A stretch of DNA of 29,116 bases from Candidatus Pacearchaeota archaeon (GTDB lineage Archaea > Nanobdellota > Nanobdellia > Pacearchaeales > GW2011-AR1). The stretch spans positions 1 through 29,116 of the forward strand of contig JAGLWP010000001.1 in assembly GCA_023133375.1 (NCBI GenBank), in the 5' to 3' direction. Shown in pieces: positions 1,423-24,261 of this stretch (position 1 is its first letter; each line of letters opens with the position of its first letter). A model generated the notes under the pieces. The model ran no database searches. It had not been told where the DNA came from and was given only the letters and a program-made list of their open reading frames with translations. The position numbers and the translations under genes were made by a program.

Positions 1423-1650
1423 TTATCCCTTCTTCTCTATCTTAACACCCAACTCTTCAAGACGCTTAAGATGTGCTTGCATAATAGATTCTATGTTCTG
1501 AATCATTTTAATTAATTCATTTCTCTCATTTACTAAGGTGTTCAATGCTCCTTGATGAAAACCTATTTCAGTTTCCTTTGACATCTGTGGAGCTTGCGGT
1601 TCTTTCTTATTCAGCGATTCTTCAAGATTTGCTTTATCTATTTTTACCAT
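1423..1650 (-). CDS. Small hypothetical coiled-coil protein
   Basis: 75 aa ATG ORF with an amphipathic helix, in tandem with the FTR-like gene. Confidence 0.8.
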   Translation of the reverse strand: MVKIDKANLEESLNKKEPQAPQMSKETEIGFHQGALNTLVNERNELIKMIQNIESIMQAHLKRLEELGVKIEKKG

Positions 1651-1693
1651 GTTAATACTTTACAAATTGCCTTATAAAGTTTTGTAAACTAAA

Positions 1694-1981
1694 CTAAGCA
1701 ACAAATAAAAAACACTTGCAATGCCCTTCTGCTTTTATTTCTCCTTTATGAAATACGCAAGGGCAAATAATATCTCTATCTTTCTTTTTATCACCAGTAA
1801 TAACCCTGCATGGACAATAAATTTCACCACGTGTTTCTTTATTTTTTAAAAGTCCTTTTATTAATCCTTCCACTATTTTTTTATCAGGGTTCAATTTTAT
1901 CCCTGCTTTCTGAGCATATTCTTCTGCATATCTCCTTAACTCCTCTGCATTTTCTGAATTGAATTTTTCTTGCATTTTCAT
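1694..1981 (-). CDS. Ferredoxin:thioredoxin reductase catalytic subunit-like Fe-S protein
   Basis: YCPCR, ICPC and HCKC give the six-Cys CPC/CPC/CxC pattern of FTR catalytic chains. Confidence 0.9.
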   Translation of the reverse strand: MKMQEKFNSENAEELRRYAEEYAQKAGIKLNPDKKIVEGLIKGLLKNKETRGEIYCPCRVITGDKKKDRDIICPCVFHKGEIKAEGHCKCFLFVA

Positions 1982-2014
1982 AAACTTTATAATCTCTTTT
2001 CATTTTTATATCTT

Positions 2015-3706
2015 ATGAAAGAGGTAATAGCAAAAGTTCTAAAAAAAGCATTAAAAAAAGTAAAGATTAATTTAAATGAAGAGGAAATTGAAAAACTCAT
2101 AGAAATCCCTCCATCTCAGGAAATGGGAGATTATTCTTTCCCATGTTTTTTTCTTGCTGAAAAACTTAAACAAGAACCAAATCAAATCGCTTTAGAGATA
2201 AGGGAAAAAATCGGAAACCCTCCTGTGATGGATTTCGAGGACGTTCAAACATCAGGACCCTATATTAATTTTTTTTTGAACAGAAAAGATTTTGCAAGAA
2301 AGCTTGTTTGGGAAGTTTTAACTCAAAAAGGAAAGTTTGGAAAAATTAATTTAGGAAAAAGAAAAAAAATCATTGTGGAATTTTCTTCACCAAATATTGC
2401 GAAACCATTTGGGATTGGACATTTAAGATCAACAATCATTGGAAATTCCATAGCGAACATTTGTGAATTTGAAGGATTTAAAGCAATAAGAATGAATTAT
2501 TTGGGGGACTGGGGTGCGCAGTTTGGAAAATTATTATTAGGATATGAAAAATTCGGAAGTGAGACAAAACTGCAAAAAAATCCCATGAAGCATCTTTTGG
2601 AAATTTATGTTAAGATAAATAAAAGCAAGAGATATGAGAAAAAATCAAAAGAATGGTTTAAAAAACTTGAAGAGGGAGATAAGAAAGCATTGATGTTATG
2701 GAAGGTGTTTAAGCAATTAAGCTTACATGATTTTAAAAAAATTTACAAAATTCTCGGCGTGAAATTTGACGATTATACAGGTGAATCTTCATACTCCAAG
2801 AGGATGAAAAAAATTGTAGAAGAATTAAAAGAAAAAAATCTTTTGAAAAAAAGCCAGGGGGCGGAGATTGTGGATCTTAATGAGTTTGGGTTGGGTATTT
2901 GTTTAATAGAAAAAACCGATGGAACAACACTTTATGCAACAAGAGATATTTCTGCAGCCATTGCAAGATACAAAAAATATCAATTTGAAAAAATGATTTA
3001 TGAGGTTGGTCAAGAACAAAATTTATATTTTAGGCAAGTATTCAAAGTTTTGGAGTTGGCGGGTTACAAATGGGCTAAGAATTGTATCCATGCAGGACAC
3101 GGACTTTATTTAGGCAAGGATGGAAAAAAATTTTCAACAAGAAAAGGGAAAACAGTTTTCATAAAAGATATTTTAGAAGAAACAATTTCTTTGGCAAAAA
3201 AAGAAATAAAAAAAAGATTCCCTTCAATCACAAAAAGAAAATTAGAGGAGCGAGCATTAAAAATCGCAATAGCCGCAATATTCTATGGAGATTTGAAAAA
3301 TAGTCGTTCTAATGATATTGTTTTTGACATTAAAAGATTCATTTCTTTTGAAGGAGATACTGGTCCGTATGTGCAGTATAGTTATGCAAGAGCAAGTTCC
3401 ATCTTAAAAAAAACAAAAAACCAAGATAAATTTAAAGTATATGATTTAGAACAAAAAGAACTTGAATTAGTAAAAAAACTTTCACAATTCCCCGACATTG
3501 TTTTGAATTCCTACAAAAATTTGAGTCCGTCAATCATCGCTAATTATTCTTATCAACTCGCAAAAATTTTCAATGAATTTTATCATACTTGCCCAGTAAT
3601 TGGTTCAAAGCAAGAATCATTTCGATTAGCGTTAGTTGAAGCATTCAGGCAAATTTTGAAAAGCGCTCTGCGTCTTTTAGGCATAGATGTAATCGAAGAA
3701 ATGTAA
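2015..3706 (+). CDS. argS: Arginine--tRNA ligase
   Basis: SSPNIAKPFGIGHLRS (HIGH region), YLGDWG, DGTTLYATRD, KFSTRKG, GDTGPYVQYSYARASSIL. Start moved to ATG 2015 to avoid overlap with the divergent gene. Confidence 0.97.
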   Translation: MKEVIAKVLKKALKKVKINLNEEEIEKLIEIPPSQEMGDYSFPCFFLAEKLKQEPNQIALEIREKIGNPPVMDFEDVQTSGPYINFFLNRKDFARKLVWEVLTQKGKFGKINLGKRKKIIVEFSSPNIAKPFGIGHLRSTIIGNSIANICEFEGFKAIRMNYLGDWGAQFGKLLLGYEKFGSETKLQKNPMKHLLEIYVKINKSKRYEKKSKEWFKKLEEGDKKALMLWKVFKQLSLHDFKKIYKILGVKFDDYTGESSYSKRMKKIVEELKEKNLLKKSQGAEIVDLNEFGLGICLIEKTDGTTLYATRDISAAIARYKKYQFEKMIYEVGQEQNLYFRQVFKVLELAGYKWAKNCIHAGHGLYLGKDGKKFSTRKGKTVFIKDILEETISLAKKEIKKRFPSITKRKLEERALKIAIAAIFYGDLKNSRSNDIVFDIKRFISFEGDTGPYVQYSYARASSILKKTKNQDKFKVYDLEQKELELVKKLSQFPDIVLNSYKNLSPSIIANYSYQLAKIFNEFYHTCPVIGSKQESFRLALVEAFRQILKSALRLLGIDVIEEM

Positions 3707-18388: not shown

Positions 18389-19000
18389 ATGGCTGAAAAA
18401 CAAAAATCATGGTTCAAAAAACATCCTGTCTGGACTGGAATAATTGGATTTGTTGTATTAGCAATGATTATTGGTCCTTTTTTGCCTGGTGATAAACAAG
18501 AATCAAATGAAGGGAGTTTAACATTATTAGAAACAGGAAATCAAGATAATGATTGTAATCCAAATTGGCAATGTTCCTCTTGGTCTATATGCAGTTCATC
18601 AAGTAAGCAAACAAGAACTTGTTCAGATAATAATAATTGTGGTGTTCTAACTAATAAACCAGCAGTATCTCAATCATGTACTCCTTCTGTAGAAGAAAAA
18701 TCAGATAAAGCGACAATAGGTGAAAAGAACGCATTATCTAAGGCATTATCTTATTTGAGTATTATGCCTTTCTCTTATAGTGGATTAATAGAACAATTGG
18801 AGTATGAAGGATATACGCATCAAGAAGCAGTATATGGTGTAGATAATTCTGGGGCTGATTGGAATGAGCAAGCAGCATTAAAAGCTCAATCTTATTTAGA
18901 TATTATGCCCTTTTCACGAGAAGGGTTAATAGAACAATTGGAGTATGAAGGATATACAAGAGAGCAAGCCGAATATGGTGTTCAAGCTGTTGGGTATTAA
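18389..19000 (+). CDS. Membrane-anchored protein with Cys-rich module and two Ltp-family repeats
   Basis: N-terminal TM; CNPNWQCSSWSIC...QTRTCSDNNNC; two copies of A-x-SYL-x-IMPFS...GLIEQLEYEGYT-x-x-x-A-x-YGV. Confidence 0.88.
   Translation: MAEKQKSWFKKHPVWTGIIGFVVLAMIIGPFLPGDKQESNEGSLTLLETGNQDNDCNPNWQCSSWSICSSSSKQTRTCSDNNNCGVLTNKPAVSQSCTPSVEEKSDKATIGEKNALSKALSYLSIMPFSYSGLIEQLEYEGYTHQEAVYGVDNSGADWNEQAALKAQSYLDIMPFSREGLIEQLEYEGYTREQAEYGVQAVGY
18785..18957 (+). repeat. Exact 32 bp intragenic repeat of the Ltp units
   Basis: TTAATAGAACAATTGGAGTATGAAGGATATAC at 18785-18816 and 18926-18957, period 141 nt (47 codons). Confidence 0.92.
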
Positions 19001-20290: not shown

Positions 20291-20692
20291 TTAGAAGTTA
20301 TAAAATCGTTCTGAATGATCAAGATAAGGGCAACATTCTCTTTTTGTGGGATCTTGTTCATTCTCTTCTAAATCTTCCCAGGATTCTATCTCTTTTAAAT
20401 CTCCAACATAGCAATATCCTAATGCAATCTCATCTGTTATTTGATTATATTGTAATCTCGGACATCTAACCATTGTAGAACAACCGCCTTTGATTGAAAC
20501 TATTGCTGTTACTCCTTCAAGTTTGTTGTTTCTTCCTTTACATGGAAAAGATTTTGTCTCAATTGTTTTTTTCTTTTCATTCATTAAATCTACAAGAATA
20601 TCTTTTCTATTCAAATTTATTTCTACAGGAATTTTACCAATGTTTAATTCTGTTTTTATTATTATATTATCTGATTTTTTTGCCATATTCAA
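20291..20692 (-). CDS. Hypothetical Cys-rich protein
   Basis: 133 aa with six Cys (FPCKG, GCS, RCP, YCY, ECCP). Confidence 0.7.
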   Translation of the reverse strand: MNMAKKSDNIIIKTELNIGKIPVEINLNRKDILVDLMNEKKKTIETKSFPCKGRNNKLEGVTAIVSIKGGCSTMVRCPRLQYNQITDEIALGYCYVGDLKEIESWEDLEENEQDPTKRECCPYLDHSERFYNF

Positions 20693-20807
20693 CTTCGAGT
20701 AACATACCTTATAAATCTTTTGTTTTATTACTTCTCTAAAGTTACTACAAGCCTATCTTAATTTTTTTGCAAGCAACTTTTAAAAATACTATTTGTTTAT
20801 TTCCTTC

Positions 20808-23666
20808 ATGCCTTTCATTAAAAAAATAGTGATGCACGGATTTAAAAGTTTTGTTAAAAAAACAGACATCCCATTTACGCCCGGAATAAATGTTGTTTTA
20901 GGACCAAATGGAAGTGGGAAAAGCAATATTTCCGATGCACTGTGTTTTGTTTTAGGAAGACTTTCAATAAAATCAATGAGAGCAGCTAAAGCAAGAAATT
21001 TAATTTTCATAGGTACAAAGGCAGTAGCCCCCTCAAAGGAAGCGTCAGTAGAAATAGTATTTGATAATTCTGATAAAACTTTTTCAATTGATAATAAAGA
21101 AATTTCAATAAAAAGAATAGTAAGAAAAAATGGTCAAAGTATTTATAAGATAAATGATGAAACAAAAACAAGACAGGAAATCTTGGCATTATTGGCTCAA
21201 GCTGGGATAGACCCAAATGGTTTTAACATAATTTTGCAAGGAGAAATTCAGAACTTTGTGAGAATGCAGGCAGAAGAAAGAAGAAAAATTGTTGAAGAAG
21301 TTTCCGGGATTTCTATTTATGAATCGAGAAAAGAAAAATCTCTAAAAGAATTGGATAAAACAGAAGACAGATTAAAAGAAGTCTCGGCAATATTAAGGGA
21401 AAGGTCAATTTATCTAAATAATCTTGAGAAAGAGAGACAGCAGGCACTGAGGTATAAAAAACTTGAGAAAGATATTAAAAAATATAAAGCGAGCATAATT
21501 TATTATGATTTAACAAAAAAGAAAAAAGAAGCAGGGATTATAGAAGAAGAAATATTAAAGAAAAATAAGCAAATAGAAAAATCAAGAAAAATAAATTTAA
21601 CTATCCAAACTTCTATTGAAAATATTGAATATAAAATCCTTTCAATAAATTCTGTTATACAGAAATCAACTGGGCTTGAACAGGAGAAACTTAATCAGGA
21701 AATAGCAGATATAAGAGCAGAACTTGCAGGAATAAATGTAAGGATTGAGAACTATGAGAATAAGCTTTTAGATATAAGAAAACAAAAACAGGAATTTGAA
21801 AAGATATTTAATGAAAATAAATTAGCAATAAAAGAATTAAAGGAGGAATCTCCAAGCAAGTCCAAAACCCAAAAAGAAATAGAAGAGAAGAAAAAAGAAC
21901 TTGAGAAGTTTGAAGAACAAAGAAAAAAATTTTACACAACAAAATCAGAACTGAAATCAATTAGAGAAAGAATTCATGATAAAGAAACTCTTCTGCAGAA
22001 TTTCACCAATGAATCAGAATTCTTGCTTAAGCAAATAAAATCTTTCTTTAGAGATTTATTTGATAGGAAAACAAATGAAGAAAAACTTGACGCATTAAAG
22101 ATTTCTCTTGCAGAAAAAAAGGAACTTTTAGAAAGATTGAATAAGCGAGAGATAGAATTAGAAAAAATTTCTGGAGCTAATGAATATGAAATAGACAAAC
22201 AAAATAAGCTTATTAAAAAAATATCAAAAATGGATCTTTGCCCGCTTTGTAAAAATAAAATTACTCAAGAACATATTGAAGAAATACACAGGGAAACATT
22301 CCCAAAAATTGAATCTTTGAAAAAAGAAATAGAAAATTCTGATAAAGAATTGGGGGGGATATATAATAAAAAGGACATGATTAAACAGGGAGTAGAACAG
22401 ATAATTTCTGAGATTTCAAAAAGAGAGTTGGATTTAATTAAACTTTCAAATATAAATGAAAAGAAAGACCAGATTAAGATTCTTCAAGAAAAAATTGATG
22501 GATTGAAAAAGGAATTATCTGGATTATCTAAAAGAGAAAAAAACCTTGAGATGAATTTTGATGCAAACTCAAATATTGAACAAAAATATGAAACTATGAA
22601 AGTTGAAATTCAGGAGATTTCATCTAGAACAAAAGAAAACATTAATTCAGAAATTTCATTTAAACAACGGGAATTTGAACGCTCGAAAATTTCTATAAAT
22701 CAATTAATTAGGGAAGAAGAAGATTTCAAAAAAGAACTTAAAGAAATTAAAGAAGAAATGAATAAAAAAGAAGAATCTCTGGAAAAAAAGAAGAAAAGCG
22801 AGAGAGAGTTAACTGAAAGATTTCAAAAATTAATTTCAGAAAGGGATGTTCTGCAAAAGCAGGTAAGGGAAAATGAATTAAAACTTTCTTCAAATAAAAA
22901 CTTCATTTATAATTTTGAGCAGAATATTAATAATTTAAAAATAGACCGGGCAAGAGTTGGTGCAGAAGTTGAAAACCTTGAAACAGAAATGCTCAGTTTT
23001 CCAAACATTGAAATAATAAAAGCAAATAAAGAAATACTTTTGCAAAAACTAACTAAATTTCAGGATATTATATCAAGAATTGGTTCAGTAAATCTTCGTT
23101 CTCTGGAAGTTTATGAGCACATAAAAAAAGAATATGATTCAATTAAGGAAAAAACAGAAATTATAAATAAGGAAAAAGAAGGAATATTAAAAATAATTCA
23201 TGAGATTGATATAAAAAAGAAAAAATCATTTATGAAAACTCTTACATCACTCAATGAAATCTTCTCTAGAAATTTTTCACAATTAAGTGAGAAAGGACAT
23301 GTATATCTTGAATTAGAAGATAGAAAAGAACCTTTTTCTGGGGGAATTAATATAATTGTAAAAACAGGGCATGGAAAATACTTTGATGTAAAATCATTAT
23401 CTGGAGGAGAGCAAACCCTTGTCGCGCTTTCATTAATTTTTGCAATACAAGAATTAAGCCCATACCATTTTTACATTTTAGATGAGATTGATGCTGCGCT
23501 CGATAAGAGAAACTCTGCACGACTCTCAAATTTACTTAGAAAATATATGCAAAAAGGACAATACATTGTTATCTCCCACAACGATGAAGTTATCTCAAAT
23601 GCAACAAATATTTATGGCGTCAGTATGCATGACGGAATTAGTAAAGTTATTAGTTTGAATGTTTAG
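20808..23666 (+). CDS. smc: SMC-family ATPase with central CPLC motif
   Basis: GFKSF, GPNGSGKSN, Q-loop IILQG, LSGGE, ILDEIDAALD, ISH, long coiled coils. ATG 20808 preferred over TTG 20793. Confidence 0.9.
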   Translation: MPFIKKIVMHGFKSFVKKTDIPFTPGINVVLGPNGSGKSNISDALCFVLGRLSIKSMRAAKARNLIFIGTKAVAPSKEASVEIVFDNSDKTFSIDNKEISIKRIVRKNGQSIYKINDETKTRQEILALLAQAGIDPNGFNIILQGEIQNFVRMQAEERRKIVEEVSGISIYESRKEKSLKELDKTEDRLKEVSAILRERSIYLNNLEKERQQALRYKKLEKDIKKYKASIIYYDLTKKKKEAGIIEEEILKKNKQIEKSRKINLTIQTSIENIEYKILSINSVIQKSTGLEQEKLNQEIADIRAELAGINVRIENYENKLLDIRKQKQEFEKIFNENKLAIKELKEESPSKSKTQKEIEEKKKELEKFEEQRKKFYTTKSELKSIRERIHDKETLLQNFTNESEFLLKQIKSFFRDLFDRKTNEEKLDALKISLAEKKELLERLNKREIELEKISGANEYEIDKQNKLIKKISKMDLCPLCKNKITQEHIEEIHRETFPKIESLKKEIENSDKELGGIYNKKDMIKQGVEQIISEISKRELDLIKLSNINEKKDQIKILQEKIDGLKKELSGLSKREKNLEMNFDANSNIEQKYETMKVEIQEISSRTKENINSEISFKQREFERSKISINQLIREEEDFKKELKEIKEEMNKKEESLEKKKKSERELTERFQKLISERDVLQKQVRENELKLSSNKNFIYNFEQNINNLKIDRARVGAEVENLETEMLSFPNIEIIKANKEILLQKLTKFQDIISRIGSVNLRSLEVYEHIKKEYDSIKEKTEIINKEKEGILKIIHEIDIKKKKSFMKTLTSLNEIFSRNFSQLSEKGHVYLELEDRKEPFSGGINIIVKTGHGKYFDVKSLSGGEQTLVALSLIFAIQELSPYHFYILDEIDAALDKRNSARLSNLLRKYMQKGQYIVISHNDEVISNATNIYGVSMHDGISKVISLNV

Positions 23667-23850: not shown

Positions 23851-24261
23851 TTAGTTTCTATCACATTGACATTGCAAAACCTGATAACTTGGGGTATAGA
23901 AATCTCTGATTTTTTCACAAAGAGTCGCTAATTTTAAAGCATCTTCATTTTTATAAAATTTTTCTGGATTTTGTTTTAGTAAATCAAGTTGTCTTAGGGT
24001 ATTTTTAAATCCGCATATTGGGTTCTTCAAATTTAAGGAATCATAGCCAGCCAGTTCAACAATTTTACGCAGGTCTTTTACAAAAAAATAATCTCTTTTT
24101 TCAATAACTGATTCTAATCCTCTTAAAATTTCTCTAAAGAATTTTTTTGCATCATCAACATATACTTCAAAATTTTCACTAAAAAAAGTTTTTTTATTCC
24201 TAATTGAATGAGACACAAAATTGAAAACCACTTGATATTCAAATTTTTCTATTTCATCCAT
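23851..24261 (-). CDS. Hypothetical protein
   Basis: 136 aa ATG ORF, helical pattern. Confidence 0.75.
   Translation of the reverse strand: MDEIEKFEYQVVFNFVSHSIRNKKTFFSENFEVYVDDAKKFFREILRGLESVIEKRDYFFVKDLRKIVELAGYDSLNLKNPICGFKNTLRQLDLLKQNPEKFYKNEDALKLATLCEKIRDFYTPSYQVLQCQCDRN

Follow-up and report, generated by a model that had tools for sequence, protein, structure and literature searches.

The question raised by this locus is how an SMC protein without a hinge could be joined at the tip of its arms. The locus is an smc gene in a 29,116-nucleotide stretch of DNA from a Candidatus Pacearchaeota archaeon of the order Pacearchaeales (assembly GCA_023133375.1, contig JAGLWP010000001.1, positions 1 to 29,116), and by the window we mean the whole of this stretch. 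Canonical SMC proteins have about 1150-1200 amino acids and dimerise via a hinge; Rad50 dimerises via a CxxC hook. Possession of a hinge has been regarded as a hallmark of SMC proteins, and the hinge is also a proposed DNA-binding site and DNA entry gate. A first-pass annotation, made from the sequence, had described the window gene as encoding a protein of 952 residues with SMC-type head motifs, a CPLC motif at residue 478 in the middle of the chain, and no globular hinge; the length, the position of the CPLC and all four head motifs that it named were found again when we mapped the gene. Following the analyses described here, we consider it likely that the protein is the single orthologous Smc of a Smc-ScpA-ScpB system in which a Rad50-like zinc hook has taken the place of the hinge.

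We could not find a hinge at any level of the search. The hinge profile SMC_hinge (PF06470) had no match in the window SMC even at E ≤ 1 in the Pfam scan, none in a six-frame search of the 447-kb, 75%-complete assembly, and none in 34 full-length relatives that are 37-84% identical to the window SMC. A custom hidden Markov model built from six Nanoarchaeia hinges detected every hinge-type control locus but none of 26 SMC loci from the order. The absence of a globular hinge had been read from one protein at first pass, and it extends to the genome, the relatives and the loci of the order. The AlphaFold2 model of the full-length protein, made with 34 sequences (mean predicted local distance difference test score, pLDDT, 79.9), has no globular middle domain either. 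What is predicted is a long intramolecular antiparallel coiled-coil arm, with a helix (residues 424-474), a turn (475-486) and another helix (487-586) at its end. Paired breaks in the modelled arm, at about 207-216/759-765, 345-351/605-610 and 417-423/587-589, are reminiscent of the SMC joint and elbow. A hinge-less form might also arise by error, for example by a deletion in a metagenome-assembled genome or during gene calling, and an assembly that is 75% complete and broken into 41 contigs gives some room for this. However, dozens of independent genomes from the order contain the same frame of about 952-1010 residues with a CPxC, as do hundreds of clusters in the databases (NCBI, JGI, ENA, Logan), and we regard the chance of an artefact as practically negligible.

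The heads and arms are those of Smc and not of Rad50. In Pfam, SMC_N spans residues 3-945 (1.2e-53), and the best scores against NCBIfam models were 520.1 bits for TIGR02169 (SMC_prok_A) and 504 bits for TIGR02168 (SMC_prok_B). The TIGR02169 match comes in two stretches that leave the hinge part of the profile unmatched, and it is because of the missing hinge that the score stays under the equivalog cut-off of 729.4 bits. Rad50 models gave at most 98.5 bits against cut-offs of at least 700, and the ASRP model NF045487, with its cut-off at 300 bits, reached 100.6, mainly from coiled coil. The best matches among PDB sequences were Pyrococcus Smc heads (1.5e-104, 3.8e-94 and 3.2e-84), with Rad50 at 3e-15, and the best Foldseek matches of the full-length model were condensin and Smc. 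The Walker B of the window SMC reads DEID, versus DEPT in Rad50. For a maximum-likelihood tree we used both halves of the head from 99 proteins: 36 SMCs of the hook type, 8 short ones, 50 of the hinge type and 1 of a divergent hook type, plus 4 Rad50 proteins of the same order. The branch leading to the Rad50 outgroup was 1.47 changes per column long (support 100), and the window SMC lay inside a clade of 44 hinge-less SMCs (Shimodaira-Hasegawa-like approximate likelihood-ratio support, SH-aLRT, 89), amid hinge-bearing SMCs of the same class. Head phylogeny had been proposed at first pass as a check, and both the tree and the scores (520 versus 98 bits) place the heads with SMC. The first-pass reading would have been contradicted by a hinge or by heads that group with Rad50, and neither was seen.

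Alignment of the arms locates the difference from canonical Smc. Residues 3-472 are colinear with positions 1-479 of TIGR02169, and in phmmer alignments hinge-bearing SMCs resume at about residues 465-493, directly past their hinge. The arms measure about 300 residues per strand versus about 320 in hinge-bearing relatives. The window SMC is about 213 residues shorter than relatives of about 1165 residues because a hinge of about 178 residues, with about 35 flanking residues, is replaced by a turn of about 12-20 residues. By these alignments, the arms are not much shortened and only the apex differs from canonical Smc. The earlier description of a chimeric, shortened SMC therefore needs to be divided: SMC heads combined with a Rad50-like apex were found as described, and the shortness proved to be that of a replaced hinge, on arms of nearly full length.

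Several lines of sequence evidence liken this apex to a Rad50 hook. Between residues 289 and 715, no column other than C478, P479 and C481 is invariant (34/34 relatives), and the CPxC is likewise the sole invariant feature in an 18-sequence alignment of apex segments across families of the order. As the protein contains just three cysteines and these are the sole invariant columns of the arm, the motif is not there by chance. The profile Rad50_zn_hook (PF04423) was matched by 10 of the 34 relatives at E ≤ 0.01 (best E 5e-6), and the best NCBIfam matches of the apex segment were to central positions of Rad50 models, followed by ASRP (19.5 bits) and arcadin-4. The Smc and Rad50 hooks of the order have an extended motif in common, L-x-x-C-P-x-C-K-x-x-[IV]-T-x-E-H, and in each genome the Smc-apex profile recovers the Rad50 hook with scores of 47-58 bits (E about 1e-16). 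When 37 Smc apex segments were aligned with 29 Rad50 apex segments of the same order by hhalign, the likeness spanned about 90 residues at 22% identity (probability 99.3%, E 6e-21, score 104, coiled-coil controls 16-48), with a register that is partly preset by construction, the segments having been cut around the CPxC.

That last reservation weighs against a hook, and so do a number of other results. A Rad50_zn_hook scan had been suggested at first pass; the profile was the top Pfam match of the apex segment, yet its 17.7-18.6 bits lie below the cut-off of 24.3. A phmmer search of the 100-residue apex segment against PDB sequences returned no Rad50, only chance matches at E ≥ 0.09, such as the 'CPLCKNDIT' of the BRCA1 RING. 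The AlphaFold2 model of the apex segment is a helix-turn-helix hairpin (pLDDT 93; turn 88-93), for which Foldseek ranked the hooks of P. furiosus and human Rad50 (1l8d_A, 5gox_A and 1l8d_B) as the top three, with weak E-values of 0.02-0.03. VIA-align superposed it on 1l8d_B with a root-mean-square deviation of 2.4 Å over 101/102 residues, and the Z of 10.8 is non-discriminating, as many unrelated helical hairpins also give Z 10-12. The structure comparison is consistent with a hook and not decisive, and it is the sequence evidence that carries the hook claim.

Further points on this side come from related SMCs of about 780-870 residues that have neither hinge nor CxxC. They were found within the same order, in families f5, f6 and f7 and in genus g360 of family f4, where they include a single-contig genome (L023-L027 from genomes G028, G035, G040, G029 and G030; L094 and L095 from G343 and G356; and the proteins P0140, P0143, P0145 and P0148). 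These proteins have a far shorter helical stretch in place of the distal arm and the hook, which correspond to about residues 380-590 of the window SMC. They occupy scattered positions in the head tree, where at least three changes are needed, and P0143 is nested within the hook-bearing members of f4, which points to secondary loss of the hook in at least this case. An apex dimerisation module may thus not be strictly needed in some contexts, and this keeps alive the alternative that the CPxC only caps the hairpin structurally, with an intramolecular metal site or a disulfide, and that the chains are held together by arm zipping, head engagement and the kleisin. The hook-less sister SMCs suggest that an apex joint is dispensable, and two histidines just past the CPLC, H489 and H494, could supply the remaining ligands of a four-ligand site in a single chain. 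However, these histidines are not conserved in the order (Y, D or A is found in their place), whereas the CPxC is invariant, and two cysteines alone could not fill a tetrahedral site in one chain. In the Rad50 hook structure 1L8D the cysteine pairs of each chain pair across chains, and a mere cap would leave the likeness to Rad50 hooks over about 90 residues to be accounted for. We consider a structural cap unlikely, though it is the alternative that we take most seriously.

We infer that the window SMC binds zinc, forms homodimers through its hook and works in the manner of a condensin. Each chain would fold back on itself to form an arm whose two strands have about 300 residues each, and Cys478 and Cys481 from two chains would jointly bind one zinc ion at the tip, as in Rad50. 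With this constitutive joint, the two arms would form a V- or rod-shaped dimer, the same as is normally made by a hinge. The heads would be closed by ScpA with ScpB, and ATP hydrolysis, loading and translocation on DNA would proceed as in canonical Smc-ScpAB. This cycle is plausible because a Bacillus subtilis Smc in which the hinge had been exchanged for the P. furiosus Rad50 hook, Smc(Zh), had near-normal arm-arm association and supported normal growth (PMC5344682), its function being still dependent on arm geometry. In Rad50, too, hook and hinge are reported to be exchangeable for one another (PMC6969161).

The partners that such a complex would require are encoded in the genome. The window gene is the only SMC gene in the assembly (41 contigs). 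ScpA was found on contig C2 (8087-8722, 48 bits) and ScpB on contig C41 (3007-3444, 123 bits). The genome also has a Rad50 of its own on contig C37 (positions 1477-3522 of locus L004, minus strand), a protein of 681 residues with a CPTC at residue 349, and its gene lies directly downstream of that for a 415-residue Mre11. None of scpA, scpB and mre11 is in the window, which agrees with the statement at first pass that they are not adjacent to smc; the search for a kleisin and a separate Rad50 that had been proposed there led to these three contigs. Across the order, ScpA was found in 39/41 genomes, ScpB in 41/41, and a separate Rad50 of about 680 residues with its own CPxC in 40/41.

Because the two kinds of hook are so alike, it is conceivable that the Smc hook joins separate complexes, either one Smc dimer to another or an Smc hook to the Rad50 hook of the same cell. 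The recognition of the same-genome Rad50 hook by the Smc-hook profile, the extended motif that both share, and the presence of Smc and Rad50 together in 40/41 genomes would fit with such bridging. On the other hand, the smc and rad50 genes are unlinked, the flanking coiled coils differ (only 22% identity in the hhalign comparison), and the near-normal arm-arm association of engineered Smc(Zh) takes place inside the dimer (PMC5344682). We therefore think that a joint between complexes is highly improbable. It is equally doubtful that hook-to-hook pairing of Smc with Rad50 couples the chromosome-folding motor to double-strand-break repair in these minimal genomes, as such pairing would do.

The genome setting also bears on whether the protein could belong to another family altogether, as a Rad50 paralogue, a member of the ASRP/ClsN/Sph group, an arcadin-4, or a defence SMC such as LmuB or JetC. 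These families bear hooks or are hinge-less, and the window SMC has sub-threshold matches to the ASRP, Rad50, arcadin-4 and LmuB models. These matches (ASRP 100.6 versus 300, Rad50 98.5 versus 700, LmuB 70 bits) are all far under the SMC scores and under the thresholds of the models themselves, the heads lie inside SMC in the tree, and the protein is the sole SMC of a genome that has kept ScpA and ScpB, in a gene with housekeeping neighbours. There is very little chance that it is anything other than Smc. An SMC of a defence system or mobile element was rejected as a separate candidate, since the scores of the PADLOC models mads_3, LmuB and JetC (174, 71 and 42 bits) fall well short of the SMC score, and since the gene is single-copy and stands among housekeeping genes (RNase HII and PCMT, a protein-isoaspartate methyltransferase).

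To place the trait within the phylum, we surveyed 301 genomes, all of one class and at least 70% complete. SMC_hinge was present in 278 of them, typically in frames of 1160-1200 residues; this count includes two hinge-positive genomes flagged as unpublished (G283 and G284), which underlie no conclusion here and without which it is 276/299. None of the 15 surveyed genomes of the window's order (the window genome, 13 others of its family and one of family f4) had a match to SMC_hinge. Of five other hinge-negative genomes of the class that we checked, four had no SMC match at all and one had only a fragment at a contig end, and therefore none represents a further lineage with a hinge-less SMC. 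Within the order, one hinge-less SMC was found in 40/41 genomes. The apex profile matched all 401 genomes sampled, with the best matches in frames of about 950-1035 residues, a tally that is not a count of hook SMCs given that the profile also detects the Rad50 hook of each genome. In the protein database, 831 clusters at 90% identity matched the apex region, and the named ones are SMC proteins of Candidatus Pacearchaeota or Nanoarchaeota. The hook-bearing Smc is restricted to one order of DPANN archaea and is conserved across most of that order.

A second, divergent type of hook SMC was also found, with 983-993 residues, a midpoint CPVC or CPIC, and no match to SMC_hinge. It is represented by L040 (genome G039, contig C20) and by the protein P0272 (983 residues, CPIC), which is named 'Candidatus Diapherotrites'; their heads are 89% identical and group apart from the main hook clade. 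The 5.5-kb contig that carries L040 may be mis-binned, because G039 also holds pieces of the ordinary SMC of the order. The approximately unbiased test did not reject a tree in which the hinge-less SMCs all form one clade (p 0.37), and the data are for this reason compatible with one origin of the hook or with several.

A side observation concerns the SMC genes of this class more generally. Some of them contain an intein of about 525 residues with a LAGLIDADG homing endonuclease directly after the Walker A region (Intein_splicing 6e-28, LAGLIDADG_3 2e-23). The carriers are the hook-type P0122 and P0129 (about 1480 residues), and P0168 and other hinge-type SMCs of the class (about 1660-1810 residues).

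Comparison with known systems shows how the window SMC combines features that are otherwise found apart. Like canonical Smc (Pyrococcus; 5xei, 5xns, 4i99), it has an orthologous head with all motifs, nearly canonical arms with joint- and elbow-like breaks, a single gene copy, and ScpA and ScpB; the canonical protein has a hinge of about 178 residues (PF06470) where the window SMC has a CPxC turn of about 12-20. With the Rad50/SbcC hook (PF04423; 1l8d, 5gox, 6zff) it shares the flanking motif and a CPxC placed exactly where the antiparallel coiled coil turns back. Unlike Rad50, it has SMC-type heads (DEIDAALD, not DEPT) and no Mre11 partner, and its arms have about 300 residues versus about 200 in the Rad50 of the same genome. 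The engineered Smc(Zh) (Buermann et al. 2017, PMC5344682) is alike in joining Smc heads and arms to a Rad50-type apex hook. However, Smc(Zh) is a laboratory chimera, whereas the window form is natural and has its putative hook set straight into SMC arms without an obvious transplanted Rad50 coiled coil.

In ASRP (ClsN/coalescin, Sph1/2; Yoshinaga et al. 2022, PMC9389158) and in arcadin-4, which are likewise archaeal members of the SMC superfamily, a zinc hook stands in place of a hinge. These form a separate family of shorter proteins with divergent heads. The first-pass caution that hook-bearing archaeal SMC-like families had been described is thus correct as to their existence, but they are different proteins, as seen from the 100.6 bits of the window SMC on NF045487 against 300. 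A 'hinge-less' SMC of marine Actinobacteria has been reported (Sussfeld et al. 2025, PMC12153180), which is SMC-type and also misses the hinge, but it is bacterial and is reported to lack a CXXC, in contrast to the invariant CPxC found here. The hook-less SMCs of about 800 residues in this order are the closer analogue of that protein. In the literature we searched, from which most subscription journals were absent, we found no description of a natural zinc-hook SMC, only the engineered Smc(Zh).

If the protein is indeed an Smc with a zinc hook, then the only Smc-ScpAB of a whole archaeal order would carry a Rad50-type hook, with a few lineages having neither hinge nor hook. This would be natural evidence that the apex fold is not essential for SMC function, as Smc(Zh) suggested, and that dimerisation modules can move between members of the SMC superfamily in evolution. 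It would also provide small natural proteins with which the contribution of the apex could be tested biochemically. In annotations, proteins of this kind are called simply "chromosome segregation protein SMC", and they will be missed by pipelines in which SMCs are gathered through the hinge.

The features of the gene are collected in the table. The ATG was preferred as the start over an upstream TTG at 20793 because homologues begin at the same MPFIKK. The TATA-like box TTTAAAAATA is possibly an archaeal promoter, which would give a nearly leaderless mRNA.

Table. Position of the smc gene, its parts and the upstream box in the window.
Feature	Residues	Position	Strand	Evidence and details
A/T-rich TATA-like box TTTAAAAATA		20781..20790	+	Read from sequence; about 20 nt upstream of ATG
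smc, hinge-less Smc with CPxC hook (putative zinc hook)	1-952	20808..23666	+	Open reading frame (ATG at 20808, stop at 23664-23666, product 952 residues); SMC_N, TIGR02169 and Pyrococcus Smc matches
N-terminal ATPase head half	1-168	20808..21311	+	Motifs, AlphaFold2 fold (beta/alpha head, pLDDT about 85-90), PDB alignment (5xei, 5xns, 4i99 with residues 1-200); HGFKSF at residues 10-15, Walker A stretch GPNGSGKSNISDA at residues 32-44 with GPNGSGKS at 20901-20924, Q-loop Q144; motifs invariant among 34 relatives
Ascending coiled-coil strand	169-474	21312..22229	+	AlphaFold2; colinear with TIGR02169 positions 1-479; predicted helices 169-206, 217-288, 290-344, 352-416, 424-474; breaks 207-216, 345-351, 417-423
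Apex turn MDLCPLCKNKIT, putative zinc hook	475-486	22230..22265	+	CPLC at 22239-22250 (TGC CCG CTT TGT, C478-P-L-C481); relative position 478/952 = 0.50
Descending coiled-coil strand	487-826	22266..23285	+	AlphaFold2 and phmmer alignment; predicted helices 487-586, 590-604, 611-729, 741-758, 766-826; breaks 587-589, 605-610, 730-740, 759-765
C-terminal ATPase head half	827-952	23286..23663	+	Motifs invariant among relatives; alignment with C-terminal head of Pyrococcus Smc, which is ScpA-binding in 5xns and 4i99; signature LSGGEQ at residues 864-869 (LSGGE 23397-23411), Walker B and D-loop FYILDEIDAALD at 23469-23504 (ILDEIDAALD at residues 890-899), H-loop H924

The neighbours of smc in the window include the genes for RNase HII and PCMT, and none of the neighbours is a known SMC partner. 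Two open reading frames on the minus strand flank the gene directly, at 20291-20692 (133 residues) and 23851-24261 (136 residues); neither has a Pfam match, and the first contains several cysteine pairs. Further upstream, the window also encodes, at 18389-19000 on the plus strand, a protein of 203 residues with an N-terminal hydrophobic segment, a cysteine-rich stretch and two Lipoprotein_Ltp repeats (PF07553, 2.5e-30), a family described in Pfam as a host-cell-surface-exposed lipoprotein, which is unexpected for a DPANN archaeon.

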